DNA of 64,000 nt from Escherichia coli (GCF_030013595.1 NZ_CP122768.1), one strand, 5' to 3'; positions 39,517-57,018 are shown, numbered from the stretch's first letter. Notes: generated from the sequence alone by a model not told the origin. Numbers and translations: made by a program.

Positions 39517-39530
39517 TTCCCGTTTTATTC

Positions 39531-39558: not shown

Positions 39559-39616
39559 CTCATTGATTCTTATCTGTGTATCACCGTCATCATTCTCATC
39601 CGAGAACCAATCGAAA

Positions 39617-39800
39617 TTAACAACAGCCTTCTTCTGTATGCAGCAAGGCAAAAAGTTCTGTAACTCCATTGTTATTAACTGCACTGGTTACTAACACGTT
39701 GTGCGCTCCAGCTTCCCGTAACCAACTTTTCACCAAAGATATTTGTTCCATGCTGGCTAAATCTGCTTTGGTTACTACTCCAATGACCGGGTGATTCATG
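39617..39800 (-). pseudogene. yoeF: EutP/PduV-like GTPase C-terminal fragment (yoeF-like remnant)
   Basis: Only the C-terminal ~60 residues (VIGVVTKADL...NGVTELFALL) resemble EutP/PduV; no matching N-terminus. Confidence 0.4.
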
Positions 39801-39859
39801 GCCCGGTAGGGCGTTTTTACCTCTAATTCCTGCTTCAGCGCTGAGATTCCTGCTTGTTG

Positions 39860-39999
39860 CCAGAAAAGCAGGCACCTGCCGTCTGAACGGTATCGATCCG
39901 GAAGCGTATCTGCGCCATATTCTGAGCATACTGCCGGAATGGCCCTCCAACCGTGTTGACGAACTCCTGCCATGGAACGTAGTTCTCACCAATAAATAA
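39860..39999 (+). mobile_element. IS66-family transposase C-terminal remnant (...CRLNGIDPEAYLRHILSILPEWPSNRVDELLPWNVVLTNK-stop)
   Basis: Frame opens after a stop at 39823-39825 with no start; sequence matches the conserved IS66 TnpC C-terminus. Confidence 0.6.
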
Positions 40000-40413
40000 G
40001 CGTCAATACGGTGCTCCGTTGACGCTTACTTTAATCCGTTTTCTGAGCTTAGATTTTTCTGTTCCTACCCAGACCGTGGATTTGGAATTCATTTTTTGTC
40101 AGGTCAATGCTAATCGTTAAAACGGCCATAACGCACCTCCACTGGAAGGTTTATCAGTAATATCCTACCGTTGCTTCATGGTCGGGGCGTCCATTCCATT
40201 ATTATCGGTTTTCCTTTCTGTTTATAAATGAAAACGCCAGCTGTATTCAGGCTGGCGTCAGGAGAAATGAAGCCTGTTGAGTGAGATTCACCGGTTCTGG
40301 TGCAGAAGCTGCAGATGGCGCAGGGTAAGGACATCTTCTCTTGCCTGCTTAATACAGGACAACAGTGCTGTTTCTGTGGTTAATGGCACTATACCCTGTA
40401 TCACTGCATTGTC

Positions 40414-40608
40414 TTACAGCAACTGGTGAGGGCTGGCATAAGTTGCCGGTGTTTCGGTAGAGTCACGGTCATCCACCACGCGGAGTGAATAACCGTTTTC
40501 AGCGGCCTTATTAATCAGTTCAGTGATATTAACACCATCAATGTCAACGACAATGTGCCCCATATCCAGCGCCTGTACGTTAACGCTGTCGGCTTCCAGT
40601 GTCATCAT
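40414..40608 (-). CDS. yeeW: CP4-44-type protein YeeW
   Basis: 64-aa ORF immediately downstream of cbtA. Confidence 0.7.
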   Translation of the reverse strand: MMTLEADSVNVQALDMGHIVVDIDGVNITELINKAAENGYSLRVVDDRDSTETPATYASPHQLL

Positions 40609-40979
40609 TTCGCCTCCGGATACTTACCCAGGGTAATGTTATTTACCGTTCTGTAATTGTCGCGGGTCATCAGGCCGGTTGCCCGGCGTGCCCGGAGGAT
40701 ATCAATACTGTTTATTAACTGAGAGCGGGTACAGGCGCTGAATCCCGGCTGGTCGGTACGCACCAGCGCGTATTTTTCCACGAGAAAGTTCACCGCATCA
40801 CACAGTGAAATGCCTGCCTCAATATGCTGCTCAATCACACGTTCATCGGCAAAAGGTGTGTCATTCAGTGTGAGGCCATAGTGCTGGTCCAGCAGTCGGG
40901 ACAGCAGTATCTGCCAGATTTCAACAGGAGACGGGCGAGAACTGGCCGCCTGCCCGGGTAATACAGGTAATGTTTTCAT
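40605..40979 (-). CDS. cbtA: Cytoskeleton-binding toxin CbtA (YeeV)
   Basis: 124-aa ORF MKTLPVLPGQAASSRPSPVEIWQILLSRLLDQHYGLTLNDTPF. Confidence 0.9.
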   Translation of the reverse strand: MKTLPVLPGQAASSRPSPVEIWQILLSRLLDQHYGLTLNDTPFADERVIEQHIEAGISLCDAVNFLVEKYALVRTDQPGFSACTRSQLINSIDILRARRATGLMTRDNYRTVNNITLGKYPEAK

Positions 40980-41067
40980 ACTGAAGATTTTCCTGATATG
41001 CAGATATAAAAATGGAAAAGTGGCGTGGTGAAAACACCAGGCCGTAGCAGAAGGCTATTCTGGAGAG

Positions 41068-41436
41068 TTAATTTTTCATTTCGGGCGTCGGATAAACAGC
41101 CAGATAAACGTAACCACAACTGCTGAGGGTATCGGCTTTGCAGGTCAGCCCTTTTGCATACAGCGTGACGGTATGCTGATGGCGGGGATTCAGTTCACCG
41201 CTGGTGAGCATGAGTTCCAGTTGTTTCATCAGCAGCGGAAAGGCCTGGTCCAGGTGGTACGCATCTGCATCGCTGAACAGGCCTCTGATACCGGCGCGGT
41301 CGGCAAGGTAATGCAACCGGTTACCCTCCTGCACCAGACGTGCCCCGAAACAGGGCGTCACGGTGCAGGGCAGCCCCCACTAGGGGCGGTCGTGATTGTC
41401 GTCGGGAAGTGTTGTCCCGGGGAGTGTGTCTGACAC
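41068..41436 (-). pseudogene. cbeA: Antitoxin CbeA (YeeU) with an in-frame amber stop at codon 19
   Basis: Reverse complement reads GTG-SDTLPGTTLPDDNHDRP-TAG-WGLPCTVTPCFGARLVQEG...; the stop is TAG (plus-strand cta, 41380-41382) where the remembered CbeA has W. Confidence 0.7.
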
Positions 41437-41509
41437 GATAAAATCCTTACAGAAAATCGGCTAAGAATGGTCCGGTAGTGGCGATAATTCTGCTCATCAG
41501 AATTCCCAC

Positions 41510-41731
41510 TCAGTTCAGGGTGACGCTCATCAGCCGGACATACGGACCAAAACTGTCCTTACGGCGTTCAGCAAACACGGCCAGCACACCGGGAATATCC
41601 TGCACTTCACGACCGGTATACGCTTCAGCACTGCCGTGCCAGCGGTATTTACCGGTACAGAACGGAAAAAGACGGGATGTCGGATGTTGTTGGTGAATAC
41701 GCATGGCTTCACCACGGGTGATAATTTTCAT
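41510..41731 (-). CDS. yeeT: CP4-44-type protein YeeT (DUF987)
   Basis: 73-aa ORF MKIITRGEAMRIHQQHPTSRLFPFCTGKYRWHGSAEAYTGREV. Confidence 0.85.
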   Translation of the reverse strand: MKIITRGEAMRIHQQHPTSRLFPFCTGKYRWHGSAEAYTGREVQDIPGVLAVFAERRKDSFGPYVRLMSVTLN

Positions 41732-41793
41732 AATGGGATACCTCTGAAGACAGAAGATAAAAGTGAAAACAGGTGTGATGTGGTTGTGAAGGG

Positions 41794-42270
41794 TTAAAGC
41801 AGACCATGTTCGGCAAAGGAGAAAACCTGGTTGCCACCGACTATCAGATGGTCCGGCACCCGGATATCCACCAGGCCCAGTGCCTGTACCAGACGTTCGG
41901 TGATAAGCCGGTCTGCCTTACTGGGTGTGACTTCACCGGACGGGTGATTGTGTGCCAGTACCACGGCAGCGGCATTGTGGTACAGGGCGCGTTTAATCAC
42001 TTCCCGGGGATGGACTTCCGTGCGGTTGATGGTGCCGGTGAAGAGGGTTTCACCGGCAATCAGCTGATTCTGGTTGTTCAGATACAGCACCCGGAATTCT
42101 TCACGCTCCAGTCCCGCCATGTTCAGAATCAGCCATTCCCGTGCTGCACGGGTGGAGGTGAAGGCCACGCCGGGTTCATGAAGATGGCGGTCCAGGGTTT
42201 TCAGAGCCCGCAGAATGAGGCTGCGCTCGCCGGGCGTCATCTCTCCGGGCAGAAAGGAAAGTTGTTGCAT
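41794..42270 (-). CDS. yeeS: RadC-like JAB-domain protein YeeS
   Basis: HNHPSGEVTPSKAD (JAMM motif); start taken at MQQLSFLP. Confidence 0.88.
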   Translation of the reverse strand: MQQLSFLPGEMTPGERSLILRALKTLDRHLHEPGVAFTSTRAAREWLILNMAGLEREEFRVLYLNNQNQLIAGETLFTGTINRTEVHPREVIKRALYHNAAAVVLAHNHPSGEVTPSKADRLITERLVQALGLVDIRVPDHLIVGGNQVFSFAEHGLL

Positions 42271-42285
42271 TGTGCTTCTCTCCAT

Positions 42286-42765
42286 TCAGTCGATGATGCG
42301 CATAATGGCGCTGCATTCCGGATGCTGCAGGGCGTAATCCCGCAACCGGTAATAATGGACCGTCATGGCATAATTCTCCGTACGACAGGCATGATGACTG
42401 TACGTCATCAGACAGGCGGCAATACCGGCGGCTTCCGGGCTCATTTCTGCGCGGTTACCGTTCATGGCACTGAACAGTACCCATGTTTCGTCATCATCGT
42501 CATCCGGTTCGGGTGCCATAAATGCCCCGCCGTTGTTCAGGGTGTACAGATTCCAGATACCACCGCAGTAGTCTTCGCACAGACGGTCCATCCAGCCGAA
42601 GACACGGGGCTCCAGGGTCACCCACTGTGGAATGAGGCCAAAATGCTGCGGCCAGAAGCTGATGCGCTGTTCATCAGGGACGAGGCTGGCAACCAACTGA
42701 GACGGATTATTCTCTGGTGTTGTAGCTGAATAAATTGTGGGGGTATTCTGAGAAACGGTCTTCAT
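42286..42765 (-). CDS. Antirestriction protein (KlcA/ArdB family, YfjX/YafX-like)
   Basis: 159-aa ORF with acidic PEPDDDDDETW stretch; positioned upstream of radC-like gene as in CP4-type islands. Confidence 0.7.
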   Translation of the reverse strand: MKTVSQNTPTIYSATTPENNPSQLVASLVPDEQRISFWPQHFGLIPQWVTLEPRVFGWMDRLCEDYCGGIWNLYTLNNGGAFMAPEPDDDDDETWVLFSAMNGNRAEMSPEAAGIAACLMTYSHHACRTENYAMTVHYYRLRDYALQHPECSAIMRIID

Positions 42766-42846
42766 GAGATAACTCCTTAAATAACAAATAAATGTGTGTT
42801 TTTCAGGAACGAAAGCTGAATGATTCCCTCACTCAGGGAAACGGCA

Positions 42847-43665
42847 TCAGCGCAGGCTCTCCAGCATCGTTTCTGCCATCACCCACAATGCGCGGTTGAG
42901 CTTAATGTCGGTATCAATGCTGTGAATGGCCCGGGTATGGATACGTTTTCCTCTGGCACTGCGCCCGGAAATCCCGCCTTTCAGCATATTCTCCTGGATG
43001 GTCTGATAAGCACTCCACAGGTCCTTACCGTAATCCTCCCGGCGTCGCGGCGTCAGAATGTCGGCGGTGGTGACGGGCTGATGTTCGTCACCATAACGGT
43101 AAGTCAGTGCCGCCTGTGCCAGCGCCTGGCGTGCCGGTGGCGGCAGGACCAGCGACTGCATGGCATCACGCTTCTCCTCTATCCGGTCAAACACGCCCAC
43201 CACCTCGTAAGCCCCTTCAATGACTCTGTCCACCACATTTCCCCGGTGCGGAACACGTACTTCCCCCAGAGACTGACCACAGACGCAGCCGTTCTGGCAG
43301 ACGAACCTGAAGTACCCCGGCAGCATCTGGTAGCTGGAGGTACCGTCATGAGAGTTGAGCAGAATAATTTCAGGGACATGTTCTCCGTTTATCTCTCCGG
43401 CCCGCCGCAGACGCAGCATGTGTTTTGTGTATCCCCGGCGGCCCGGGTCGCGCACACGGGTCTGGCAGGCGAAGAATGGCTGAAAGCCTTCCCGCTGCAG
43501 GCTTTCCAGTACGGTGATGGTGGGGATGTACGTATAGTTCTGGCTTCGGGACGTGTGTTTATCTTCCCCGAAAATCCCCGGCACATAGTGCATCAGTTCT
43601 TCGTGTGTCAGCGGACGGTCACGGCGTATCTGGTTCGCATAACCAAAACGACTGGCTAGTCGCAT
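42847..43665 (-). CDS. DUF932-family protein (YfjQ/YafZ-like)
   Basis: 272-aa ORF MRLASRFGYANQIRRDRPLTHEELMHYVPGIFGEDKHTSRS... Confidence 0.75.
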   Translation of the reverse strand: MRLASRFGYANQIRRDRPLTHEELMHYVPGIFGEDKHTSRSQNYTYIPTITVLESLQREGFQPFFACQTRVRDPGRRGYTKHMLRLRRAGEINGEHVPEIILLNSHDGTSSYQMLPGYFRFVCQNGCVCGQSLGEVRVPHRGNVVDRVIEGAYEVVGVFDRIEEKRDAMQSLVLPPPARQALAQAALTYRYGDEHQPVTTADILTPRRREDYGKDLWSAYQTIQENMLKGGISGRSARGKRIHTRAIHSIDTDIKLNRALWVMAETMLESLR

Positions 43666-43764
43666 AATTTGCTCCTTATCGGTGGTTAAGATTTACTGGT
43701 GTAATAAATGAAAAAGCCACGTCTCCCGGAGAAGACGCGGCCTGATGGGTGAAATGAATGACGT

Positions 43765-43998
43765 TTATTGTCTGAGAAGACCGTCACTGGCGAGCCGCGT
43801 ATTAAGCACCTTTCCGGCATCGGGTTCAGAATTCCGGCAGCGCCAGCGTCGCTGACCTTCCGCGTTGCGGATAACCAGACGGAAATGCATTCCCGGGTCA
43901 TCCTGGATAAACACATTGCGGTAAGCGGTTATGACAGCAACCGCCTGCCCGTATGAGAAAGATCCTTCAGCCAGGACATACTCTGTGTAACCCGGCAT
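43765..43998 (-). CDS. Small DUF905-like protein
   Basis: 77-aa ORF with AGGAGA RBS 9 nt upstream of ATG. Confidence 0.6.
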
Positions 43999-44076
43999 AT
44001 CTGTTTTCTCCTGATAAATAAAAAGCCTCTGCCACGCGTTGTGACAGAGGCTGAAGCATGAAACTGACTTCAGGGA

Positions 44077-44532
44077 TCAGTTAACGTTTTTTCCGGAAAC
44101 GGTAATCAGCAGTGGATGGTAGTCCTGGGGATTGAAAACCGATAACGGCAGACTGACACGATGGCCGTTACTTTCTTCAGTTGCTTTAATGATTTCGGTT
44201 GTGGCGACATTTTCCACGCACTCCGTTTCCAGAAATGCGTCTGTGGTTCGCGTGGCATTACTGTCACCAAAAGCTTCCGTTTCCATTTTTCTGGTCACCA
44301 GCGTCTGACCATATTTGTCTTTGAGTTGCAGAGTGATGGTGAGGGGGCCAAATCCTTCATCGTTTCCGCCATTATCCAGCCGGAACTGGTAAGCACAAAT
44401 ATTTCCCGGGAGCCATATCGTATCTGTATTGCGTATACTGATGTAACGTTGATCCTGTGCCCGGAGTGGGGCAGACCACGTTAACCCCAGAATGAAGGCG
44501 GTAATCATGCAGGTTTTGAACAGGTGAATCAT
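44077..44532 (-). CDS. Secreted/lipoprotein-like protein (YfjT/YafY-like)
   Basis: 151-aa ORF with N-terminal signal peptide MIHLFKTCMITAFILGLTWSAPLRA. Confidence 0.6.
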   Translation of the reverse strand: MIHLFKTCMITAFILGLTWSAPLRAQDQRYISIRNTDTIWLPGNICAYQFRLDNGGNDEGFGPLTITLQLKDKYGQTLVTRKMETEAFGDSNATRTTDAFLETECVENVATTEIIKATEESNGHRVSLPLSVFNPQDYHPLLITVSGKNVN

Positions 44533-44607
44533 GGTATTTACCTCTCTGAGTCATGACGATGACACTGACAAATCAGGTGATAAAGCGTAAAAGGCGCAGA
44601 ATAGCCG

Positions 44608-47130
44608 TTATGCCGGTAACTCCGGGGGTAATGCTTCTTCCAGTCGGTTAACCATATTGCCGAGATGGGATGCATCATATTCCATGACGGGGCGTTGCCT
44701 GATGATACTGACCACCAGTGGTTTGATTAACATATTGGTCGCGGCCCGTTGTTGTATACCGGCGGCGAAAATGATCTCCAGAGCATTCTGATCGATAACA
44801 CGGGCCAGATTCTCGTTCAGATTTTCAATCTCATGTCCGGTCAGCAGGAAACTGCCGGCAAGCCATGTCACCTGCTCCTGAATCATTGCCAGAATTTTGA
44901 CGCGATCTTCTTCAACCAGCGCTCCGGCAATTTTTCCTGATACAGCGGAGGCAATCATTCCCCCCAGAACACCGCCAACCACACGCCCTGTCAGTGCACC
45001 AAATGGTCCCAGTGGACTGAACAGTATCCCGCCCGCCACTGACCCGACAGCTCCACCTGCCACACCGGAAGATGCCACGGCAAGATTCCTGATGAACTGC
45101 GCACCGGAGATCCGTCCCCGCAACATTTTGATCATGTCAGGGCCGGTTGTGACAGCTATCAGTGCCAGAGATGTCACCAGCGTACCCTTCATTACTTTGT
45201 TCAGGGCACTGATATTTCCTGCACCGGTCCCCTTCTGAAGAGCCAGTCGGACAGTCGGGCTGGCAGTCGAAAAATCAATGTGCTTCAGCATACCCTGAAC
45301 AACACTGAGCCGGTGGAGTTGCTGGGTTGTGACGTAGACAGCCAGTGTGCGGGTGAAGGTTTTTCCTGCCTGGACAGCAGCTGTCTGCAGGGCAGCATCG
45401 CGATCGCCGGTGCTGAGCCAGAAGACCGATGCCGTCAGGGCAAAACTGATCCCTCCGGCCGCCAGACTGACAACCGAACCCTCGGCAATATCATAAGTGA
45501 CCGATTCGATGGTCCCGAACCGGGTGATATTACGGGCCTGAGTATAAGTCAGATGTCCCCGACGAATCAGCCGGGACGCTTCTGCGGGATCGGTTACACC
45601 GGGTACTTTACCTTCGCGGATCTTATTCCTCATGGTTTCAACAGCGCCGGCATACTGATCACGGGGGACTTCCAGTTGCATGGGGCCATTATTTCCCATG
45701 TAACGATACTGTCCGTTTTGTCCGTCGAATGCCGCACCGACGCTACGGGCTGCAGTTGAACAATATTTCGTCTGGATTTCTGTTCCGCTGACCAGTCTGT
45801 CTGCTCCATTTCTGGCATTATTATCACCGAGGATCCGTGCGTTTTTCAGACGGACTCTGTCGACAATATGGTTTCCCCGTTCAGCGGCAAACCCATGTCC
45901 CTGCCCTCCGGAAGCAAACATTTTCTCATTTGTACTCCAGGTTTCCGGCAGTTTCATGAGAATCAGACCATTCGCCGTTGCATCGGAAATAAAGCTGTTG
46001 TAAGGGCGTTCATAAATTTCCTGACACAGTGTTTCTGTTTCGCGACAAAGAGAGGAGCAGTACCATTCCGGATCCGGCTTATGATTTTCCGGGGCATGAT
46101 GTACTTCTGTCAGCCCGCAGGAGGCACAGATACGAAGCTCATCCACGTGATGGAATGATACAAAACGGCGACCTTCTGAAAAGGGATACCAGTCACCGCC
46201 GTCCAGGCAACGATCGAGAAAATCGTCATTCGCTTCCGGTGATAAATTCAGGCGGTTCCGGAAGAGCGTTTTCAGTTCATCAGGTGTGAATGACAGGTTC
46301 TCTTTCAACTGTTCGTTAAACCCTGCCATGTTTCTTTCATACCAGGCATTGTTCAGTAACCAGTTTCCGTCTGCCAGTTCAAATTCCCTCAGCTCTCCCC
46401 GGGAAATCCGTTGAGAAATGAGCGTCAGCCAGATGCGCTCCGTCAGTGAGTCAGGAAGGCTGTAATCGTTTTGCAAACTGGTCAGCCACGATTTACTGTT
46501 GAGCACCGGTTGTTCTTCCAGTGTCTGGCTGATGGCACAGGTCAGTTTTTTCAGCGCCTGGATCTGGCTGGCCGCCCATAGCAGCGTCACTAATGCAGCC
46601 AGCCAGTACAACAACCCGCCCCACCACATCAGTGACGGTGAAATATCGTACTGTAACGCGATCAATGGTGCGCATGCAGAACACGCCATAAGGAAAAAGG
46701 CAGTATAAAAACAGCAGTAATACCCGTTAATTTCCTTGCTGATATCTTCTGGTGTGATCCCGTTCTGCTGAATGTTTTTGATCTGCAGGGGAACAGCCAG
46801 CAGACCACCGGCGAGAGCGGTGGTCAGAATAAATTTCACAGAGTCAAAGGTGTGAGCCTCCAGCGCGATATGTTTACCATCAAGTCCCCACATGAAGCTG
46901 ATGATCATTCCGGCAATCGTCAGAAATACGCCTGCCAGCCAGCGAATATGGAACAACCGGGTTATGCGTTCGGTGATATAGCCAGCCAGTAAGGCCGGGC
47001 CGAACAGACACAGCAATATGAGCCCTGCCAGCGCAGAAGCCGTGCTGATTAATGCTCTGAACAAAAGGCGAAGAATGGCAAATCCTGCGATCAGCAGGAT
47101 CAGCGCGCCGACTATCTGTAACATAGTCAC
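44608..47130 (-). CDS. yeeR: Large inner membrane protein, YeeR-like (840 aa)
   Basis: Long ORF with N-terminal and C-terminal TM clusters and a central Cys-rich segment; between flu and the lipoprotein gene. Confidence 0.5.
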   Translation of the reverse strand: MTMLQIVGALILLIAGFAILRLLFRALISTASALAGLILLCLFGPALLAGYITERITRLFHIRWLAGVFLTIAGMIISFMWGLDGKHIALEAHTFDSVKFILTTALAGGLLAVPLQIKNIQQNGITPEDISKEINGYYCCFYTAFFLMACSACAPLIALQYDISPSLMWWGGLLYWLAALVTLLWAASQIQALKKLTCAISQTLEEQPVLNSKSWLTSLQNDYSLPDSLTERIWLTLISQRISRGELREFELADGNWLLNNAWYERNMAGFNEQLKENLSFTPDELKTLFRNRLNLSPEANDDFLDRCLDGGDWYPFSEGRRFVSFHHVDELRICASCGLTEVHHAPENHKPDPEWYCSSLCRETETLCQEIYERPYNSFISDATANGLILMKLPETWSTNEKMFASGGQGHGFAAERGNHIVDRVRLKNARILGDNNARNGADRLVSGTEIQTKYCSTAARSVGAAFDGQNGQYRYMGNNGPMQLEVPRDQYAGAVETMRNKIREGKVPGVTDPAEASRLIRRGHLTYTQARNITRFGTIESVTYDIAEGSVVSLAAGGISFALTASVFWLSTGDRDAALQTAAVQAGKTFTRTLAVYVTTQQLHRLSVVQGMLKHIDFSTASPTVRLALQKGTGAGNISALNKVMKGTLVTSLALIAVTTGPDMIKMLRGRISGAQFIRNLAVASSGVAGGAVGSVAGGILFSPLGPFGALTGRVVGGVLGGMIASAVSGKIAGALVEEDRVKILAMIQEQVTWLAGSFLLTGHEIENLNENLARVIDQNALEIIFAAGIQQRAATNMLIKPLVVSIIRQRPVMEYDASHLGNMVNRLEEALPPELPA

Positions 47131-47244
47131 TCCGTGATGAATATCATGTTATTGTTAATGCCAGCGAATGTGGCGTTGAAGATCCGTTGCGCCGGTCCGG
47201 GTCCCGGTCATGATGACCGGGACCACAGAGAGGCGATGGTTCTG

Positions 47245-50200
47245 TCAGAAGGTCACATTCAGTGTGGCCTGACCGTTATACCCTTCAGCGCTGCTGCCGC
47301 TGACGCTGTGGGCATAACCGGCCTGAACGCCCAGGGTGATATTTTCCCGGACACGGGCTTCCAGTCCGGCCTGCAGGTCCAGTGATGTGCCATTCTGTGA
47401 GGGAGAGAACGTCATCCCGCTGCCTGCAGTGGAAGTCCCCACACGCATATCTCCCCGGGAGCTGAAGGTGCGGATAACAGAAGGCTGTACCCACCAGTTC
47501 ACCGGTAATTCACTCACACTGTGTTTTGCACTGTCACGCAGGGGGGCACGGGATGAGGTGCCTTCGCCAAAGGTCATATCGTTGTGGCTGCCCAGACGGA
47601 AACCGGCACGCACATGTTGTGCACTGCCATGCCCGAACTTCACATAACCGGCGTTGTCCTTACCGTCATCCAGGGAAAGTCCCTGCCAGGTATACTGCAG
47701 TTGTGGCTCCAGCATCAGGTTGTCAGTGATACTGAAGGGCAGACCGGTTTCCAGTGAGCCCAGCCAGCCCCAGCCCCGGGCGCGGAAGTCGTTATTGTCC
47801 GATGACGCTTTCATGCTGTGGCGGGTTCCCTGTGCCACAATGTCAGCCCACAGGCCGGAGGACGTGTGTACCAGATTCAGGTATCCGCCCAGGCTGCCGG
47901 CATCATCCCGGACCGTGCCGGCACGGGAGCCGTCATCATCCTTAACATCAACGGAAGAATGGCCAGCAGCACCATATACCCCCGCGGTCACAGACATACC
48001 GGCAACCTCTGTTCTCATCAGGTCACCCTCCAGACGGACGAATCCATAGCTGCCGCTGCTTTCCGGCGTGGCCCCACGGGCAATACCGCCATTGTTATCG
48101 TGACCGAGATGACCGCCCTGAATGCTGAGACGGACGCTGTTGTTTTCACCATTTACACCGGTCTGATGGCTGCGGGAGCCTGCCACAATCCGGTCATAGT
48201 CCATTGCCTGTGTCAGCATGGAGGCATACAGGGGGACTTCTGCACGATAAGCATTTTCACTGCGCAGATACCAGCTCTCATCACTGTCCCGGTTGAGGGA
48301 GTAGTTAAAGGCACCGGCCTGCAGCCTGTTCCCCTGGACAAAGGCCCCTTCCTCCGTGGTGGCACCGTTAATGGCTTCAACCACCTGAATACCCTTACCG
48401 CTGGTCGCCAGCCCCGACGCACTGTTGCCGGCGTTCACCAGGTTCAGGATGGTTTTTCCGGTTGCCCTGCCACCGTCAATGACCAGTCTGTCAGCATTGT
48501 TCTGTGCCATATCCGGGCGTACACGCAGGCTGATGGTGCCATTCTGCCCGTTCAGGTTTTTCACTTTCAGGGTTGCCGGTACGAACTTCCCTGTGCGGGT
48601 GGAGGTGAAATGAATCTGTCCGGCATGGCTGAGGTCATCCACCACCGACTGCACCGTGGCGTTATCGGGGATATTCCAGGTGGCACCGGAGGCGAGAGTG
48701 ACATTCGTGGGGTCAATGGCACCGTTCAGCACAGTGCTGCCGGTCAGCTTCAGGGCTGTACCGCGCTGAGCAATGACATCCGTGGTGACGGTACTGTCGT
48801 TCAGCGTCAGCGTGCCTTCATTCAGGTTGACGGCTTTCTGGGTGAGTGTGGTGTTGCTGACAGTGAGTGTGCCACTTCCTGATTTTTCCACGCTGCCGTT
48901 ACCGGTGAGAGAGCCTCCCTGCAGGAGCGCATCGCCTTCACGGATGGTCAGGGTATCGTTGTTCACCGTCTTCCCGGAAAGGGTAAGTATGGCGCCGTTA
49001 TTCAGCGTGGTGGTGCCCGCCAGTGTGCCGCCCCTGGCGGTGAACAGTCCGCCATTTACCGTGGTATCCGTGGCCGTATCACCGGCGTTCAGCGTGAATG
49101 AACTGCCTTTTTCCAGCATCAGGGCATCCGCCTGACCGCCTCCGATACTGAATGCCTTTCCGTCGCTCCGGGTACCACTGACAGCGGCACCGGAATCGGC
49201 CAGCAGTACACCGCCATTTCCCATGGATACGGTGGTGGCGGTGCCACCGTTGCGGACATCCAGTGTTCCGCCATCATCCACGCGGGTATTAGTGGCTGTG
49301 TGTCCGGTCAGCACATCCAGGCGTCCGCCATTTTCCAGTACGACATTATCAGCTTTACCCTCCACAACAGAGAATGCTCCCAGGCGGTTTATGCCGGTAA
49401 CGGTTGCAGCCGTACTGGTAACCAGTGCGCCGCCCTGCTTCAGGGTGACATTCGTGGCTGTACCACCGGCGTCCACCTGCAGTCTGCCCTTCTGATTAAC
49501 GGTGGTATTCCCGGCCACACCCCCGTTTTTGACAATCTGCCAGCCGTCACTGTTCACAACAGTGTCAGACGCTGTACCGCCGTTGTGCACATACTGGTAT
49601 CCCCCATTCAGCGTGGTATCCAGTGCGTGACCATGTACAGTCTGGTCGCCGCCGGCATAAACCACAGTGGTATTTGCCGTTCCTTCAGCTCTCACAATCT
49701 GGCGACCGTTTTTATTGATGGTTGTGCGTACGGCATCCCCGCGAACAAACTGCCCGGTATCACCGTTTTCTGCATCCGGTCCCCCTTCCGCCCCGGTATT
49801 AACAACGGTATCCGTTGCCACTGTACCGGGCTTGACGACCTGCCAGCCCTTATCATTAATGACGGTTCCTGTGGCTATCGCCCCCTCATGCATCCACTGT
49901 TCGCCACCATTCAGCGTGGTGTTCACTGCCCGTCCCTGAAGGCTCTGTCCGCCTCCGGCACTGATAACCGTGTCTGAGACACTTCCACCGGGGTTCACTC
50001 TCTGAAGACCACCACTGGTGACAGTCGTTTTGTTGGCTGTTCCGCCATCCTGTACCCATTGCCCGCCGGTATTGGCCTCGTTATCCGGCCCATACTCCAG
50101 CCCGGTACTGATGGTCATTCCGTTGGTCGTACCGAAGACAATCTGGTTGTCATGATTTGCCAGTGTTCCGCCGTTCACGGTTTCTCCCGGGTGCACAACG

Positions 50201-50364
50201 ATGTCAGCAGCCAGCACCGGGAGTGACGTGACTGCGGCAAGAGACAGTGCAACCGCCACACCGCCACGTTTACCCCGTGCGCGGGCCAGTTCGGAGGCAA
50301 CCACGAAAGCGCCCGTAATGTGATTCCATACCAGCCTGTAGCAGGTATTCAGATGTCGTTTCAT
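47245..50364 (-). CDS. flu: Antigen 43 self-associating autotransporter adhesin
   Basis: 1039 aa from MKRHLNTCYRLVWNH; repetitive beta-helix passenger and C-terminal beta-barrel ending in F. Confidence 0.95.
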   Translation of the reverse strand: MKRHLNTCYRLVWNHITGAFVVASELARARGKRGGVAVALSLAAVTSLPVLAADIVVHPGETVNGGTLANHDNQIVFGTTNGMTISTGLEYGPDNEANTGGQWVQDGGTANKTTVTSGGLQRVNPGGSVSDTVISAGGGQSLQGRAVNTTLNGGEQWMHEGAIATGTVINDKGWQVVKPGTVATDTVVNTGAEGGPDAENGDTGQFVRGDAVRTTINKNGRQIVRAEGTANTTVVYAGGDQTVHGHALDTTLNGGYQYVHNGGTASDTVVNSDGWQIVKNGGVAGNTTVNQKGRLQVDAGGTATNVTLKQGGALVTSTAATVTGINRLGAFSVVEGKADNVVLENGGRLDVLTGHTATNTRVDDGGTLDVRNGGTATTVSMGNGGVLLADSGAAVSGTRSDGKAFSIGGGQADALMLEKGSSFTLNAGDTATDTTVNGGLFTARGGTLAGTTTLNNGAILTLSGKTVNNDTLTIREGDALLQGGSLTGNGSVEKSGSGTLTVSNTTLTQKAVNLNEGTLTLNDSTVTTDVIAQRGTALKLTGSTVLNGAIDPTNVTLASGATWNIPDNATVQSVVDDLSHAGQIHFTSTRTGKFVPATLKVKNLNGQNGTISLRVRPDMAQNNADRLVIDGGRATGKTILNLVNAGNSASGLATSGKGIQVVEAINGATTEEGAFVQGNRLQAGAFNYSLNRDSDESWYLRSENAYRAEVPLYASMLTQAMDYDRIVAGSRSHQTGVNGENNSVRLSIQGGHLGHDNNGGIARGATPESSGSYGFVRLEGDLMRTEVAGMSVTAGVYGAAGHSSVDVKDDDGSRAGTVRDDAGSLGGYLNLVHTSSGLWADIVAQGTRHSMKASSDNNDFRARGWGWLGSLETGLPFSITDNLMLEPQLQYTWQGLSLDDGKDNAGYVKFGHGSAQHVRAGFRLGSHNDMTFGEGTSSRAPLRDSAKHSVSELPVNWWVQPSVIRTFSSRGDMRVGTSTAGSGMTFSPSQNGTSLDLQAGLEARVRENITLGVQAGYAHSVSGSSAEGYNGQATLNVTF

Positions 50365-50544
50365 CAGCTTTTCCTTAGATTGAGGGTGAATAAAAAAGCC
50401 GGTACCCACAAACGTGGATACCGGCAGGTAAAGGGTTACAGTGCCGGAGGTCCGGCTGTGGGAGTTTCTGAATTGTGGTTCTGTTGTTCCCTGAATGTCT
50501 TTCTGTACGTATCTGTGCATGTTACTGACAAAGGTTATTATTAG

Positions 50545-50592
50545 CTTATCGATCGATATAAACGATCGATAAAATAGATATCGATCGTTTTA
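50545..50592 (-). promoter_or_regulatory. agn43 (flu) phase-variation switch: three GATC Dam sites within the OxyR-binding region
   Basis: GATC at 50551-50554, 50564-50567 and 50583-50586, about 190-220 bp upstream of the flu ATG. Confidence 0.8.
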
Positions 50593-50691
50593 TTCTATTA
50601 TTGAGCTATTGCACGGACAAGAGAGACAGTAACGAAAACAGTGCTTTTGTGAGCAGACTCAGAGTCAGGGAGGGCATCAGTCACGACAGGT

Positions 50692-51564
50692 TCAGAAGAA
50701 AATCCAGTTCCATACCGCACGGGCAACAGAGACCACCGTGTCACGAACAGCGCGCAGGGCCGTACGGACAACAGAGGCAACACAGACGCTCTCCGCTGTG
50801 TCAAATATCCGGTCCACCGCACCGGTAAACTGTTCACGGGCCTGAGAGCGGACAGATTCCGTGCGCAGCTCGTCCTGCAGTCGGGTCATCAGGGGACTGG
50901 CGGCATGGTCGGGAAGCGCTGTCATGAGCGCACTGACCAGCGTATCCAGTTCCCAGCCGGTGCGGGCCGATACGGCCACAACCGGATGTACGGGCCGGAA
51001 CAGACGGAATACCGCCTCCGTTTTTTCGCGAATATTCTGTGCCTGTGCAGGAGAAGGCTGAATACCGGCCATATCCCATTCATGGCAGGGCTCCGTTTTG
51101 TCGGCCTGCGTCACCACAAACAGTACCCGCTGATGTCCCCGGTGCAGGATGTGTCGCCAGAAATACTCATCCACAGACAGGGCACGGTCATCGGCTTTAA
51201 TCAGCCACAGTACCAGGTCAAGTTCAGGCAGAATGTCACGGTACAGGGCCTCATACTCTGCATCCCTGTCCCGGCTCTCGCCCACCCCGGGCAGGTCAGT
51301 GATAACCATGCTGTGACCGTGGCCACTCAGACGGAAGCGCCGTACTTCCCGGGTGCCGGCGTGAACATCACTGACCGGGGTGACCTCCCCCTGAAACAGT
51401 GCATTACAGAGTGAGGATTTACCGGCCCCGCTTTTACCCATAATGCCAATCACGGGTTCGTGACGGGTGAGTTTGCGCAGATGTTCCAGGATGTGACGGG
51501 AAAGCGAGTAAGGCAGGGAGGAGAGCGGTTTTTCAATTGCCTCAATGGCATCAGACGGATTCAT
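50692..51564 (-). CDS. yeeP: GTPase YeeP/YkfA family (apparently intact)
   Basis: P-loop GKSGAGKSS; start taken at MNPSDAIEAIEKPL. Confidence 0.75.
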   Translation of the reverse strand: MNPSDAIEAIEKPLSSLPYSLSRHILEHLRKLTRHEPVIGIMGKSGAGKSSLCNALFQGEVTPVSDVHAGTREVRRFRLSGHGHSMVITDLPGVGESRDRDAEYEALYRDILPELDLVLWLIKADDRALSVDEYFWRHILHRGHQRVLFVVTQADKTEPCHEWDMAGIQPSPAQAQNIREKTEAVFRLFRPVHPVVAVSARTGWELDTLVSALMTALPDHAASPLMTRLQDELRTESVRSQAREQFTGAVDRIFDTAESVCVASVVRTALRAVRDTVVSVARAVWNWIFF

Positions 51565-52792
51565 ACATGTATTCCCGGTGAAAAAAGACAAAACCCCGCG
51601 CACCGGAAAGGTGGCGGGGGATTCACGGAGATAATATCTGTCTGAAATTGTTTTTAATCGATGGGATTGTTGCGTATTAACATGAAGGAGATCAGGACTT
51701 ATCCGTTACTGGGTGATCTCCTTCCATGAAAATACGCCGTTATTGTTAAACAGCAGGCTGATTTCTCCGTAAAGGGGAAAATATTTATCGGCTGCATGAT
51801 TATCAGGTGTGTCTGTGTTTACTGCTGTGAGTATTTTTCAGTGTATTGTGGGGGAGATGTCAGTGGGAGATATTAAATTTACATTTATAATTATCTTACT
51901 TCTTCTGTGTGTTTTTTATAAGAGTGCACACGTAATGATATCTGTTGATACCATGTGGTTAAGTGTTTCCCTTCCTGGTCATGCGTAATGATTAAATGCT
52001 TTTGTGACACCATTCTTCCGGTCTGAATATTTATCCCGTTCTTTTTTATTTGTGCAGTGATACTGTCGGAAGAGAATTCAGTAATGTGAGGTGTCCTGGT
52101 CAGGATAATATCTGCTGAGATATTATTAGTTGAGTGTGTTTTTACTGAGCAAAAGCTGGCTTTTAATTCCTGTACTGAAACACTGTCGCTCGTCCGGGGT
52201 TAACTGAAACTGGATGATGATGTAAAATGAAGGCTGTTTTTGTGTTTGTCGAAGAAGTGTTATTTTAATCCATTCTCATCATTGGCTGGCGATTATACAG
52301 AAGTATTTGAAGAAAAAATGGTGCATTTTATCTGTGTCAGCAGGGAAGAAGTATTTTATTGATGTATCAGTATTAAATGGTTTTTGTTATTTATAAAAAT
52401 GTCATCCTGTCCATAGAATATTGTACTCAGCATTCAGTGCAGGAACTGTAGTCTTCTTTATTTTATTCTTCTTCAGGAGGGGGGATTCCTGAAGGCGTTA
52501 TTCCCGGTGTTCTGTTTATGATTCATCCCGGCAGGAAACCGGTATCTGCAATACCCGGGATGATGCTTTTTGTTCGTACGTGGTTGTGTAAAATTTGAAT
52601 AGTGGATGTGCTCTGAAGGGAAGGAGGGGACACACAGATTCATTTTGTCTTTCTTCAGCAGCAAAACACACTGTGGTTATTATTTAACCATTAAATCAAC
52701 AAAAATTTTTACCTCATATTGATTTGACTGCTATTTTTGCTATTAATAGCCAGAATTGCAGTGCTTTTATATCTGTGTGTAGTGAGGTTACT

Positions 52793-54277
52793 ATGTCATT
52801 CGGTCAGCCTTGTGATGAGTTTCCCCTGAGTTCGCTGCCTCCACTCATTCGTGATGCCGTTATTGAAGCTCAGCAAATTACGCAGGCTCCCCTTGGGCTT
52901 GTGGCAGCGTCTGCCCTGGGCGCTGTTTCACTTGTCTGCCAGAATCTGATTGATGTCTGCAGACTGAATACACTGCGGGGGCCGGTCTCTCTTTTTTTCC
53001 TGACGCTTGCCGAGTCCGGAGAACGAAAAACCGCAGTGGACAAATTATTAATGAAGCCCCTGTACCAGCAGGAGATGCAGTTATATTCCAGATACAAAAG
53101 TGAACTGGCTGTCTGGAAAAACAAGGAAGAGCTTTTAAAGGCTCAGAAAAAAGCATTGTTGTCAAAACTGAATAAAGAACTCCGCAAAGGCGCGGATGAG
53201 TCAGAAACCCTCAGACAACTGGAAGTACTTCAGAAAAACAGTGCGGAAGAACCTGTGAGGTATAAATTCATTTTTAATGATGCCACGACTGCGGCAATTA
53301 AGAATCAGCTTTGTGGTAAATGGCGTTCAGTGGGTATTATGTCAGATGAAGCCGGTATTATATTTGATGGATATACCCTGTCTGAGTTGCCTTTTATTAA
53401 CAAAATGTGGGATGGCTCTGTATTGTCTGTGGACAGAAAGAATGAACCCGAACAGATGATTGAAAATGCCAGAATGACGTTATCCCTCATGGTGCAACCC
53501 GGTCTTTTTGACCGATATATGGAGCGAAAAGGTTCTGTTGCCAGGGACAGTGGTTTTCTTGCCCGTTGTCTTATCAGTAAACCTGCAACCACGCAGGGGA
53601 AACGCTTTATTAACGGAGCTGTGATTCCGGGAGGATCATTAACGGCATTTCATGAACGATTAATGGAACTGGCCAGAGGCAGTATTGAAAAATCCAGTGA
53701 GGATGAACGGTATTGTCTGCATTTTTCGCCTGAAGCGCAAAAAATATTTATTGAGCACTATAATGTTCTGGAGCAGGATTTATCCCCTTCCGGACCCTTA
53801 AGCCCGTTTCGGGGACATGTTTCAAAAAAAACAGAAAACATTGCAAGAATTGCAGCGTTATTTCAGTATTTCAGCTATGGTGAAGGGAAAATCTCTGCCG
53901 ATATCATGACGTCTGCTGTCGTAATAAGTTCGTGGTACACAGATGAATATAAAAAATTATTTGCGTTACCTGATGAATCTGAACTGCAGCAGAAGGACGC
54001 CGAGGAGCTGTTCGACTGGCTCATTGAGGAGTGCCGCGGAGAATGCCCACCCCGTGTCAGGAAAAATTATATTCTCCAGTGTGGCCCGGGTCGGTTCAGA
54101 AACAGGAAAAAACTGAACGCATTGCTGAACATTCTTGAATCTCAGTTCAGGCTTTCTGTCGTGCCGGAAGGAAAAACCATGTATGTTCTGCTTCCCCAGA
54201 TAGCCAGTTTAAAGTTGTCTGATGTCTCTGGTATTTTTACCTCGGGTTATCACTACAATAAGCTGAGAGCGAAGTAA
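52793..54277 (+). CDS. DUF3987-domain protein (YfjI-like)
   Basis: ORF start at MSFGQPCDEF with GAGG RBS; family assignment from sequence resemblance only. Confidence 0.6.
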   Translation: MSFGQPCDEFPLSSLPPLIRDAVIEAQQITQAPLGLVAASALGAVSLVCQNLIDVCRLNTLRGPVSLFFLTLAESGERKTAVDKLLMKPLYQQEMQLYSRYKSELAVWKNKEELLKAQKKALLSKLNKELRKGADESETLRQLEVLQKNSAEEPVRYKFIFNDATTAAIKNQLCGKWRSVGIMSDEAGIIFDGYTLSELPFINKMWDGSVLSVDRKNEPEQMIENARMTLSLMVQPGLFDRYMERKGSVARDSGFLARCLISKPATTQGKRFINGAVIPGGSLTAFHERLMELARGSIEKSSEDERYCLHFSPEAQKIFIEHYNVLEQDLSPSGPLSPFRGHVSKKTENIARIAALFQYFSYGEGKISADIMTSAVVISSWYTDEYKKLFALPDESELQQKDAEELFDWLIEECRGECPPRVRKNYILQCGPGRFRNRKKLNALLNILESQFRLSVVPEGKTMYVLLPQIASLKLSDVSGIFTSGYHYNKLRAK

Positions 54278-54598
54278 CCGGTGAGCAGTTTTTCTCCATT
54301 ATGCTTCAGACTTAGATGATTGATTATTATGGGGATTTCATCACCGATATTCAGATGTATGAATATCGGTGATGAACTAAAGCTCAGGAGCTGCGTGGTG
54401 GTGATGAATCAACAGGCATATAACTGATACCCGCCGGTCAGAAGTTCCAGCCTGCGACTTTCCTGTCTGCGTGCCCGCAGTCCGGCGTTCAGGTGCAGCG
54501 TGTGACAGAACGCACGGAGAGCGAAACGGCAGGCAGACAGGCCGTTCAGTCAGCCCTGGCACCCTGCCCGGATACCAGCTTCCCTGAAACAACTGGCA

Positions 54599-55207
54599 TC
54601 AGGTGCGCTTATCGTCAACCGTTGTGCGGTATGCCAGGAGCACGTACTGATCCATCAGATCCGTCAGTGCTGCGCTCTGCTTCTGACGGTTGATGATCCA
54701 TTCCTCCAGCTCTTTTTCTGATTTCCGTTTCAGATTCTCCGTCCAGTCGTCAAGGCAGTTTCCGGTCATTAAATCAAGCCAGCAAAGCCAGACCAGTTTG
54801 AGGCGCAACTCCGTGCCACCAAACTGACGGAAGAGGCTGATCAGTTTATTTGCCAGCGAACGCTGCCTCAGACGTTCACATTCAGACAGGAGAATGCCTT
54901 CCAGCATCGGATGATGAACCAGCAGATGTTCACTGGTGCATAAATTCACTATCAGATCATCATCCAGGGGCGGCGTGGTCCGTTTGTCCGGACCATAAAT
55001 CAGCCGGTGCAGACTCTGGGGTACGATGGCAATCTCCGGTTTTTCACCATTGAATGACACCCACCCGGGCGTCAGATTATGGAAGTAGTAGATATTCGGA
55101 TGACACACGCCCCAGGATACGGCGTGCCGGGTGAAGCCGGTCAGCCATTTCTGGTAGCTTTCGTGGAGCAGCTCGTAACGGGTCTGATACTGTGGTTTCA
55201 TTTTCAT
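54599..55207 (-). CDS. Hypothetical island protein (about 202 aa)
   Basis: ORF with GAGGAA RBS before ATG-AAA-ATG; co-directional with and downstream of alpA. Confidence 0.5.
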   Translation of the reverse strand: MKMKPQYQTRYELLHESYQKWLTGFTRHAVSWGVCHPNIYYFHNLTPGWVSFNGEKPEIAIVPQSLHRLIYGPDKRTTPPLDDDLIVNLCTSEHLLVHHPMLEGILLSECERLRQRSLANKLISLFRQFGGTELRLKLVWLCWLDLMTGNCLDDWTENLKRKSEKELEEWIINRQKQSAALTDLMDQYVLLAYRTTVDDKRT

Positions 55208-55287
55208 ATTCCTCACGGGGGATAACAGGCAGCAGAACGCCGCCGGCAGGCCGGAGACTGCGTCTGTTGCAGATGAACGGTTAAGAA

Positions 55288-55494
55288 TTACGGACGGGAC
55301 TGTGCAATACGCGCCTGCAGCCAGGCTTCCACTTCGCTTTTCAGCCATCGGGAGCTGCGGCCCATTTTGATGGGCGCAGGAAAGTCACCATCCTTGATGA
55401 GTTTGTAAAACCACTTATCGGTCAGGCCGGTCAGTTGAGTGATAAATGCCATGTCGACCATCTGGTCATCCATCAGTGAAACTGGGGTGAGCAT
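55288..55494 (-). CDS. alpA: AlpA-family transcriptional regulator (prophage CP4-57-type regulator)
   Basis: HTH pattern FITQLTGLTDKWFYKLIKDGDFPAPIKMGRSSRWLKSEVEAWL. Confidence 0.75.
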   Translation of the reverse strand: MLTPVSLMDDQMVDMAFITQLTGLTDKWFYKLIKDGDFPAPIKMGRSSRWLKSEVEAWLQARIAQSRP

Positions 55495-56823
55495 GAGAAT
55501 GTTCCTCCGGATGTTGTTAAACCAGCCGGTGTGGTCATGAAAACAACGCACCACCTTCACCGGCATAACAACCGGGGAGAAACGTAAAAAATAATCGGGA
55601 ATGTGACCGCCAGGAGATAAACGGGGAGGTTACGGTGGCTGAGCCGTACCGGTATGCCGGGTGGTTGTTACGAAACGATGCTTCCGCACGCGCGCGCGAT
55701 AAAGAAGGGATGATTTTCGTGAGGAAGAGGGGAAAACTGGCGTTCTGATAATTGCAGAGTTATTTACGGGGCGGTTACGATGGGGCAGACCGTGTCCGGT
55801 GGGCAGGCGACAGGTATCACCGATGGGATAAGACTGTCTGATTGGTATTATAAATATATAAGAGAGATCAAACACATGAGATCAAATACATGAGTTCATA
55901 TATGTGAAATAAACACGGTGAGTGTGATCAGTGGGCATGATGAGAACGCAGTAGCAACAGACTGCGCTATCCCTGATAGCTGGCGTATAACCCGCGTATA
56001 TAAAACGTATCTGCAATGTACGTGAACAGAGTGCATTAAGCATCCGTCTGAGCGGTAAACATATCCGACCTGGTGAGTGACAGTCTGAGAGACCGGTTAA
56101 GTGGTGGCTCGGGAGTAATGAGTTTGGGGTGGGTACCAGAATGCCAGTCTGGCGGTATGCTGACAGTATCACGTTAATTGCAGCATAAAGTGATGAGAGG
56201 CTAATGGAAGTTAAAACCAAAGCAGTTCCGTCGTTGTTCATCCCGGGAGACGCTGGAAAAAGTGATTTCCCACACGCGTTATAAACTTACCTCTGCGGAA
56301 CTGGAAGCCTTCAACTCTGTGGTTGATCACTGGCTGGCAGAACTGACAATGAACAAGCTTTACGATCGTGTTCCCGCTTCAGTCTGGAAATATGTCATCT
56401 GAGCGTTCGGTAATCACAACTGCATCGCACCAGGTGTTATCCGCTTTGTGATTCTTATTGGCTCTTCTCAGGTTATTAAAAGCTGAATATGTTCCTGTTG
56501 TCGGGAACCAGGATAATACCGGGAACGTTAAGCGGTATAGCGACAACAAAGAATTCGAAATCAAAAGGGAATGGTGCCGGAGGCGTGGGCGGTAATGGGC
56601 TGATTTTCAGGTATTACCGGCTTACAGCGTGTGGTTGATATTGAGGGGCTGTGAGTTTCGCGTATTTGTCAGAAACCCAGACGAGTTTTCCTGTATGGGA
56701 CGAAATAAGGCAGCGGCAATACCTGGAAAAATTTAATATGGTATGAAGGAGAACCTGTCGGTTACGCTTAATATACCCGGTACACTGTCAGCTCAGGGGA
56801 TACATGAACCGTTATCTCACCAG

Positions 56824-57018
56824 CTACACAGTATATACACACTGACTGACGCTGACAGTAGTCAGCAGGACCACAATAATCAGTGCCAGCAGTATGGTAA
56901 CGATACGGTCTGTATTCCGGTAATAGCCGAAGGGGTCGACAGAACCACAATACGGGCAACATGTATTATGAGTAATCGCGTTTCCACAGTCCCTGCACTT
57001 CTTTTTGCGTATCACCAT
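56824..57018 (-). CDS. Small zinc-ribbon membrane protein (CxxC-x11-CxxC followed by one TM helix)
   Basis: 64-aa ORF preceded by strong RBS tgaggagggagtt-ATG; MVIRKKKCRDCGNAITHNTCCPYCGS... Confidence 0.55.
   Translation of the reverse strand: MVIRKKKCRDCGNAITHNTCCPYCGSVDPFGYYRNTDRIVTILLALIIVVLLTTVSVSQCVYTV

Follow-up and report, generated by a model that had tools for sequence, protein, structure and literature searches.

The 64,000-nucleotide stretch of Escherichia coli DNA analysed here (NZ_CP122768.1, hereafter the window) almost certainly carries the undeleted form, common in E. coli, of the cobU-yeeX (CP4-44) genomic island, and the remnant seen in K-12 is explained by two lesions in the K-12 lineage. 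Alignment with K-12 MG1655 by blastn gives two collinear blocks, window 32549-42246 at 99.1% identity and 45604-51244 at 99.6%, and the 3,357 bp between them are absent from K-12. Since collinear blocks lie on both sides of a single gap, the window represents the same locus as K-12 CP4-44 in a fuller state. The island adjoins tmaR (yeeX)-yeeA-sbmC-dacD-sbcB as in MG1655, with which this flank and every shared island gene align collinearly at 99.1-99.6%. The gene order flu, yeeR, yeeS, yeeT, cbeA, cbtA, yeeW is present, with 96.7-100% protein identity to K-12 over the shared parts, and every gene from yeeW to yeeP, as well as the IsrC leader, lies on the minus strand. The features are as follows.

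39617..39799, minus, 3' remnant of pduV (K-12 yoeF), corresponding to PduV residues 88-147 (Pfam PduV-EutP, E 6e-13)
39871..40029, plus, 159-bp remnant of an IS66-family transposase gene (tnpC; K-12 yoeD), annotated as a partial transposase in strain YF-1 and K-12
40288..40368, minus, DUF957 gene fragment, the eroded outer island end (RefSeq annotation of near-identical strains)
40414..40608, minus, yeeW (DUF5983), 100% identical to K-12 YeeW
40605..40979, minus, cbtA, type IV toxin, 100% identical to K-12 CbtA
41068..41436, minus, cbeA antitoxin gene (Pfam CbeA_antitoxin, E 1e-48, on the downstream part)
41510..41731, minus, yeeT (DUF987), 100% identical to K-12 (Pfam E 2e-39)
41794..42270, minus, yeeS, RadC-like JAB protein, full 158 aa (Pfam RadC, E 8e-45)
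42286..42765, minus, ArdB/KlcA-type antirestriction gene, absent from K-12 CP4-44 (Pfam Antirestrict PF03230, E 8e-37)
42847..43665, minus, DUF932 gene, 74% identical to K-12 YafZ and YfjQ, absent from K-12 CP4-44 (Pfam E 4e-52)
43765..43998, minus, DUF905 gene, 47% identical to K-12 YkfF, absent from K-12 CP4-44 (Pfam E 5e-19)
44077..44532, minus, irmA (aec69), signal-peptide interleukin-receptor mimic, 151 aa (Pfam IrmA, E 2e-37)
44608..47124, minus, full-length yeeR, 838 aa when counted from the K-12 start, the ATG at 47124; K-12 keeps residues 1-507
47245..50364, minus, flu (agn43), Ag43 autotransporter adhesin, 99.9% identical to K-12 Flu (NCBIfam auto_Ag43, 1876 bits)
50385..50620, minus, flu control region and leader (Rfam, direct sequence reading and consensus scans)
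50692..51564, minus, intact yeeP-type GTPase gene, 290 aa (Pfam MMR_HSR1, E 1e-14)
42247..45603, segment of 3,357 bp missing from K-12 MG1655 (blastn block ends and junction sequences)
51245..64000, additional island DNA, unmatched in K-12 CP4-44 past 51244, running off the window

A preliminary description had proposed a CP4-44-like island fuller than the K-12 remnant at 39580-51600, and each item that it listed was found in place: an 840-aa YeeR-like membrane protein (the yeeR open reading frame, 44608-47130, has 840 aa if counted from a GTG) and a signal-peptide protein (irmA); co-directional DUF905, DUF932 and antirestriction genes between flu and yeeS, all three with Pfam support; and an intact yeeP-type GTPase gene that is truncated in K-12. 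Its statement that K-12 has a shortened yeeR was correct, and MG1655 does not have the gene content of the window. The proposed range holds the listed genes and does not cover the whole island, as island DNA reaches at least position 64000, where the window ends still inside it and with the cobU side beyond. In strain YF-1, the closest genome (99.7-99.9%), the island stops at a cbi remnant adjoining cobU. The DNA of 51245..64000 includes genes for YfjI/DUF3987, AlpA, an Hha-family protein, YagK/YfjJ and two zinc-ribbon proteins, an ISL3 pseudogene, and PTE, YdcZ and a GATase1-like protein (YF-1 annotation and Pfam). No tRNA or tmRNA gene and no tRNA attachment site was found in the 64 kb, and no P4-type integrase among the open reading frames of 39.6-64 kb, nor does K-12 CP4-44 have one; the label “CP4 prophage” thus reflects shared genes only. 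The element is a non-mobile remnant, tied to CP4 islands solely through those genes.

The endpoints of the yeeR/yeeS deletion map to 42246|45604, where K-12 carries a 2-bp filler (TC). Microhomology and repeats were looked for at the endpoints and none were found, so the mechanism can be named no more precisely than illegitimate recombination. A single such deletion of 3,357 bp in the K-12 lineage would have joined yeeR codon 507 to the start of yeeS and taken out irmA, the DUF905 and DUF932 genes and the antirestriction gene; the first yeeS codons are also lost. In MG1655, flu, a 510-aa yeeR and yeeS are directly adjacent and yeeP is a pseudogene. K-12 YeeS starts at Met11 and aligns from residue 9, without the N-terminus retained by its K-12 paralogue YkfG, which aligns over residues 1-158.

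A separate rearrangement in the K-12 lineage would have cut yeeP at codon 107. K-12 retains only residues 108-290, with the break at 51244|51245, and the intact protein of the window is 50% identical to K-12 YfjP and YkfA over its entire length (tblastn). On the yeeP side, K-12 carries yoeA/IS2 DNA with no match in the window or YF-1, and there K-12 is not a simple deletion derivative of the window.

YeeR consists of an N-terminal membrane domain, with five or six hydrophobic helices predicted, an invariant Cys4 motif and a YeeR_C domain (Pfam PF27347). In Proteobacteria at large, most of its relatives have about 805-855 aa, and with most of those listed (Pseudomonas, Shewanella, Dyella and others) the alignment spans 94-100% of YeeR. 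Residue 507, where the K-12 protein is cut, lies within the most conserved stretch (invariant P513, G523, Y527 and others). The 510-aa K-12 protein labelled “YeeR, inner membrane protein” is a truncated fusion product, and we infer that it is non-functional. Searches of Pfam (a copy without the YeeR_C model), NCBIfam and PDB sequences gave no match. An AlphaFold model built from 32 homologues has a mean pLDDT of 76 and a pTM of 0.46, and a Foldseek comparison of it with the PDB gave no significant match (best E 0.1). Residues ~205-330 of the model show hints of winged-helix-like repeats in Foldseek. Similarity to the candidate phage-defence family PDC-M09B of PADLOC is weak (E 7e-6 and 4e-5); taken singly, none of the stretches passes. 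The neighbourhoods of distant homologues have no common partner genes, and the gene is conserved across Proteobacteria as a solitary one. To our knowledge, all K-12 work has used the yeeR allele cut inside the conserved core; it is conceivable, if a long shot, that full-length YeeR has a genuine role in defence or the biology of the envelope that went unnoticed there and could be studied with the intact allele of the window.

The distribution of the junctions was determined across 5,426 complete genomes. The K-12 yeeR/yeeS junction occurs in 385, and all 68 of those sampled are K-12 laboratory strains, while yeeR is intact across the breakpoint in 2,171. Similarly, the K-12 yeeP junction is present in 359 genomes, every sampled one a K-12 laboratory strain, and yeeP is intact across its break point in 4,094. 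At least 80% of the whole 13.5 kb is held by 1,325 genomes, and the median number of matching places in a genome is 4. We infer that the direction of change was loss in K-12 and not an unusual gain in the window strain, because the cut lies inside the conserved core of YeeR, the YeeS N-terminus is missing, the antirestriction-RadC-DUF987-antitoxin-toxin order is identical in K-12 CP4-6 and CP4-57, and the junction is confined to K-12 in the sample.

It is very improbable that the segment was once lost here too and then restored by recombination with a paralogous island copy. Several near-identical copies of the module occur within single genomes, making gene conversion possible in principle, but the best genomes listed are collinear throughout the region at 99.7-99.9% identity, there is no step in identity at the borders of the 3,357-bp segment, the 1,325 genomes noted above hold most of the region, and the extra step is required by nothing in the data. 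We give equally little credence to a K-12 arrangement that is ancestral, with a 3.4-kb insertion between yeeR and yeeS gained by the window strain. This would account only for the bare presence/absence difference, paralogues of the segment's genes in other islands being possible donors; it must, however, rebuild, in the correct frame, the conserved C-terminal 331 residues of YeeR, also found in distant Proteobacteria, as well as a normal YeeS N-terminus, and the short form is limited to K-12 laboratory strains among the sampled genomes. Such a gain is effectively refuted by the full-length YeeR family. Hardly credible at all is that the window is a paralogous Ag43 island elsewhere (e.g. pheV, serX or selC) and the comparison with K-12 CP4-44 not like for like: Ag43-yeeR-irmA modules are duplicated in many strains (median of 4 places per genome, PMC6480617), but the flanking genes were checked and tmaR-yeeA-sbmC-dacD-sbcB adjoin the island exactly as in K-12, the pduV remnant and the 159-bp IS66 remnant are the same, the sequence is near-identical, and there is no tRNA gene in the window.

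As the undeleted CP4-44 locus, the island unites two units, a phase-variable agn43 (flu)-yeeR-irmA operon and a gene block common to CP4-type islands. For the first of these, co-transcription, OxyR/Dam control and IrmA secretion are known from published work. In the window, flu, yeeR and irmA are adjacent and co-directional. A promoter-like site from a consensus scan lies upstream of flu (50620-50592), with three GATC sites just downstream of it (50583-86, 50564-67 and 50551-54); the IsrC/Rfam IS102 RNA spans 50385-50588 (253 bits; hairpin 50425-50398), and the control region is identical to that of K-12 except for one base, 50582. A strong terminator-like hairpin with a T-run lies downstream of irmA (44052-44024). 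IrmA matches a characterised protein (PDB 5EK5, E 3e-83, residues 24-151) and is near-identical to the form crystallised; K-12 CP4-44, CP4-6 and CP4-57 have no IrmA homologue. The three genes have been reported to be transcribed together and repressed by OxyR in EC958 and CFT073 (PMC4807369). In strain 042, irmA has its own promoter and is not read from the flu promoter (PMC9431211), so operon behaviour in the window strain is not certain. The K-12 truncation, in MG1655 a deletion that disrupts yeeR (PMC4807369), and the agn43-yeeR-irmA operon have both been described before (PMC4807369, PMC6480617); the loss of 3.4 kb from laboratory K-12 is real but ordinary.

The second unit comprises a YeeP/YfjP-type GTPase, DUF905, DUF932, ArdB/KlcA, RadC/YeeS, DUF987/YeeT, CbeA-CbtA and YeeW. 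The DUF905 gene, followed by a terminator-like hairpin (43743-43714), and the DUF932 gene are probably aec70 and aec71 of the literature, respectively, an assignment of our own. The antirestriction protein matches ArdB (PDB 2WJ9, E 2e-99) and KlcA (2KMG, E 1e-20), with 66-69% identity to K-12 YafX and YfjX/LfgA, and is by sequence a member of the ArdB/KlcA family, its activity being predicted. In cbeA, codon 19 is TAG where K-12 has TGG (base 41381), and the same base is found in YF-1. Translation from an internal start at 41373 could yield a product of 101 aa; this would include the Pfam domain and come near in length to the 105 aa implied by the 318-bp yafW and yfjZ genes.

At the edge beside tmaR, EutP-like and IS66 transposase fragments are present on the yeeX side, as the preliminary description had it, although the EutP-like one derives from pduV and is not island material. 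The remnant is the 3' 183 bp of the gene, with the break at 39799|39800. This piece is a chromosomal pduV relic on the chromosomal side of the island edge and not island cargo: strain VCSW8 has an intact pduV and pdu operon directly after tmaR (tmaR-pduV-pduU-pduT onward), collinear and 97.8% identical up to window 39799. The fragment is retained in genomes with differing downstream content. The tnpC remnant is 95-99% identical to plasmid IS66/ISEc23 transposase genes, and strain AR435 has a whole IS66-like element at its position. An earlier description of the pduV relic was sought in the literature, which yielded nothing beyond the naming of the cobU-yeeX site in the genome paper on E. coli W. 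Recognising yoeF as a pduV relic and fixing the exact endpoints are small refinements of annotation, not discoveries.

The K-12 reference is an atypical state at the CP4-44 locus; irmA, the antirestriction gene and two further island genes, present in about 40% of complete E. coli genomes, are missing from it. K-12 functional-genomics data on yeeR, yeeS and yeeP should be read with the K-12 lesions in mind.

Among known systems, K-12 CP4-6 and CP4-57 share with the window the GTPase, DUF932, DUF905, antirestriction, RadC, DUF987, antitoxin and toxin genes, at 47 to 82% protein identity. Unlike the window, they have P4-type integrases adjoining thrW and ssrA, DUF932 directly after the GTPase with no flu-yeeR-irmA insert between the GTPase and DUF905, and neither an IrmA nor a YeeR homologue. 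The operon of uropathogenic CFT073 and EC958 and enteroaggregative 042 has the same three genes in the same order (Moriel 2016, PMC4807369; Bernabeu 2019, PMC6480617; PMC9431211), and the pathogen agn43 operon also has three GATC sites in the flu control region and DUF905/DUF932 genes next, probably aec70/aec71. In the pathogens described, pathogenicity islands linked to tRNA genes harbour this module, often duplicated or IS-split, whereas the window has a single uninterrupted copy at the CP4-44 site. MG1655 CP4-44 occupies the same site with the same pduV and IS66 edge remnants, and is 99.1-99.6% identical in sequence for yeeW, cbtA, cbeA, yeeT, yeeS, flu, isrC and 3' yeeP. K-12 differs in an IS2-split yoeA and an IS5, and its cbeA is without the stop at codon 19 seen in the window. 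Relative to it, the window keeps the 3,357 bp with the C-terminal 331 residues of YeeR, irmA, DUF905, DUF932, the antirestriction gene and the first yeeS codons, together with an intact yeeP and more than 12 kb of additional island DNA.

The 39.6-51.6 kb interval is occupied by a run of minus-strand genes that begins directly after tmaR (yeeX, 39121-39516). The family assignments below are strong and rest on sequence and profile matches.

40414-40608, minus strand: predicted yeeW
40605-40979, minus strand: predicted cbtA
41068-41373/41436, minus strand: predicted cbeA (Pfam CbeA, E 1e-48)
41510-41731, minus strand: predicted yeeT (Pfam DUF987, E 2e-39)
41794-42270, minus strand: predicted yeeS (Pfam RadC, E 8e-45)
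42286-42765, minus strand: predicted antirestriction gene (Pfam Antirestrict, E 8e-37; PDB 2WJ9 (ArdB), E 2e-99; 2KMG (KlcA))
42847-43665, minus strand: predicted DUF932 gene (Pfam, E 4e-52)
43765-43998, minus strand: predicted DUF905 gene (Pfam, E 5e-19)
44077-44532, minus strand: predicted irmA (Pfam IrmA, E 2e-37; PDB 5EK5, E 3e-83)
44608-47124, minus strand: predicted yeeR
47245-50364, minus strand: predicted flu/agn43 (NCBIfam Ag43, 1876 bits)
50385-50588, minus strand: predicted IsrC leader RNA (Rfam IS102, 253 bits)
50692-51564, minus strand: predicted yeeP-type GTPase gene (Pfam MMR_HSR1 GTPase, E 1e-14)

All of the genes that the preliminary description placed between flu and yeeS are present and co-directional: its 840-aa membrane protein is full-length YeeR, its signal-peptide protein is IrmA, and the DUF905, DUF932 and antirestriction genes follow. 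Genes other than flu-yeeR-irmA belong to a block common to CP4-type islands. Neither an integrase nor a tRNA site was found in the window, and the element is therefore a fixed remnant rather than a mobile prophage.

In MG1655, flu is followed by a 510-aa yeeR and by yeeS, which overlaps the yeeR stop. Blastn of the window against this region gives two collinear blocks (32549-42246 at 99.1% and 45604-51244 at 99.6% identity), and K-12 therefore lacks window 42247-45603, a segment of 3,357 bp. Two bases (TC) stand in its place, with no repeat or microhomology at either endpoint of the junction. K-12 YeeR thus consists of residues 1-507 plus three junction-encoded residues, YeeS is missing its opening codons, with Met11 as its start, and irmA and the DUF905, DUF932 and antirestriction genes are gone. 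A second lesion lies in yeeP, whole in the window as had been suspected and a 426-bp pseudogene in K-12, where the match runs only from window 51244 downward (residues 108-290); the K-12 DNA past this break is annotated as transposase in other genomes. The island is thus fuller than its K-12 counterpart, as first proposed, and the deletion endpoints are now mapped.

Loss of the segment by K-12 is the only reasonable reading, given that relatives of YeeR are mostly of full size, that the cut at residue 507 falls within the conserved core of the protein, that the K-12 paralogue YkfG keeps the full 158-aa YeeS-type N-terminus, and that K-12 CP4-6 and CP4-57 show the same antirestriction-RadC-DUF987-antitoxin-toxin order as the window. 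Counts over 5,426 complete genomes agree: the K-12 yeeR-yeeS junction occurs in 385 and the yeeP junction in 359, while yeeR is intact across the K-12 breakpoint in 2,171 and a yeeP-type gene across its break in 4,094 (paralogous copies included). At least 80% of window 39000-52500 lies in one collinear place in 1,325 genomes, with best matches at 99.7-99.9% identity. Among the matches listed, all with the K-12-type form (3, 5 and 60 rows in three listings) are K-12 laboratory derivatives, such as MG1655, C600, J53, DH5alpha, DH1, NCM3722 and MC4100.

YeeR is 840 aa long from an upstream GTG, or 838 aa from the ATG used by K-12, with five or six predicted hydrophobic helices in the first 190 residues. 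Alignments with its relatives (mostly ~805-855 aa, in Pseudomonas, Shewanella, Methylomonas, Dyella, Cupriavidus and others) cover 94-100% of the window protein in most cases, and the genes of the distant homologues stand alone, in neighbourhoods that are unrelated. An alignment of 32 sequences places the most conserved core at about residues 330-545, and shows an invariant Cys4 motif (C333, C336, C356 and C360). Local Pfam, NCBIfam and PDB sequence libraries gave no match; YeeR carries the precomputed label PF27347 (YeeR_C). Its AlphaFold model (mean pLDDT 76, pTM 0.46) has no significant match among PDB folds (best E 0.1). Residues 434-497 and 576-731 match PDC-M09B, a candidate defence family of PADLOC, weakly (E 7e-6 and 4e-5), no stretch being significant alone.

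The edge beside tmaR had been described as marked by EutP-like and IS66 fragments. Both are there, but the former is not island material. The EutP-like ORF (39617-39799; yoeF in K-12) is kept with tmaR in genomes that differ in downstream content, and the window matches strain VCSW8 at 97.8% up to base 39799, corresponding to PduV residues 88-147; it is therefore the 3' third of pduV, a relic of the chromosomal pdu operon. Since tmaR is directly followed, in some E. coli such as VCSW8, by an intact 147-aa pduV (9518-9961 of its comparison locus, L007) and a complete pdu operon, the island sits in place of a lost ancestral pdu/cbi block, which fits the designation of the CP4-44 site as 'cobU-yeeX' (PMC3032704). 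The IS66 piece (39871-40029) is 159 bp of tnpC, with 95-99% identity to plasmid IS66/ISEc23 genes. Between the pduV remnant and an eroded DUF957 island end, corresponding to window 39800-40413, strain AR435 (locus L011, its island edge, 7700-11900) has part of an IS110 element and an entire IS66-like one (tnpA, tnpB, tnpC), whereas the window and K-12 retain only the 159 bp. The 71 bp at 39800-39870 are common to several edge arrangements.

Codon 19 of cbeA (41380-41382) reads TAG for the TGG of K-12, and cbtA, the partner toxin gene, shows 100% identity with its K-12 counterpart. The cbeA base is shared by YF-1, the closest genome, in which RefSeq annotates a 101-aa protein starting internally at 41373; the 318-bp paralogues yafW and yfjZ imply a similar length, 105 aa.

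Beyond yeeP, 51600-52700 is an AT-rich gap of ~1.1 kb (39-40% GC) before a yfjI-like gene, with several plus-strand promoter-like matches and no ORF of at least 80 aa. Three genes at the distal end of the window (61157-63974, minus strand), for a phosphotriesterase-family protein, a YdcZ-type DMT exporter and a GATase1-like protein, are intact; in YF-1 the first is interrupted by an IS3 element. Elsewhere are four tandem naRNA4 (CssrE) Rfam matches (1132-1491, minus strand, far from the island), a JUMPstart element (8062-8100) and a his leader (28404-28527).

Upstream of flu the known control region is present, with a promoter-like site (50620-50592), three GATC sites (50583-86, 50564-67 and 50551-54) and the IsrC leader with its own hairpin. 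Base 50582, adjoining the first GATC of the Dam/OxyR switch, is C here and T in K-12. Directly after irmA comes a GC-rich hairpin of 12 bp and a T-run (44052-44024), and another hairpin follows the DUF905 gene. In UPEC, agn43-yeeR-irmA is one OxyR-repressed transcript and IrmA a secreted, domain-swapped FNIII-like dimer (PMC4807369); in EAEC strain 042, irmA has its own promoter within the yeeR-irmA spacer (PMC9431211). Extra hha copies are associated with the yeeR-irmA cluster (PMC6480617), a link that a small Hha/YmoA-family ORF in the distal island (56262-56402, plus strand; named from the YF-1 annotation) fits. The difference from K-12 is already in print and the finding is a known and ordinary one; added to the literature here are the endpoints at single-base level, the finding that K-12 has also lost the antirestriction gene and the start of yeeS, the counts over genomes and the pduV origin of yoeF.
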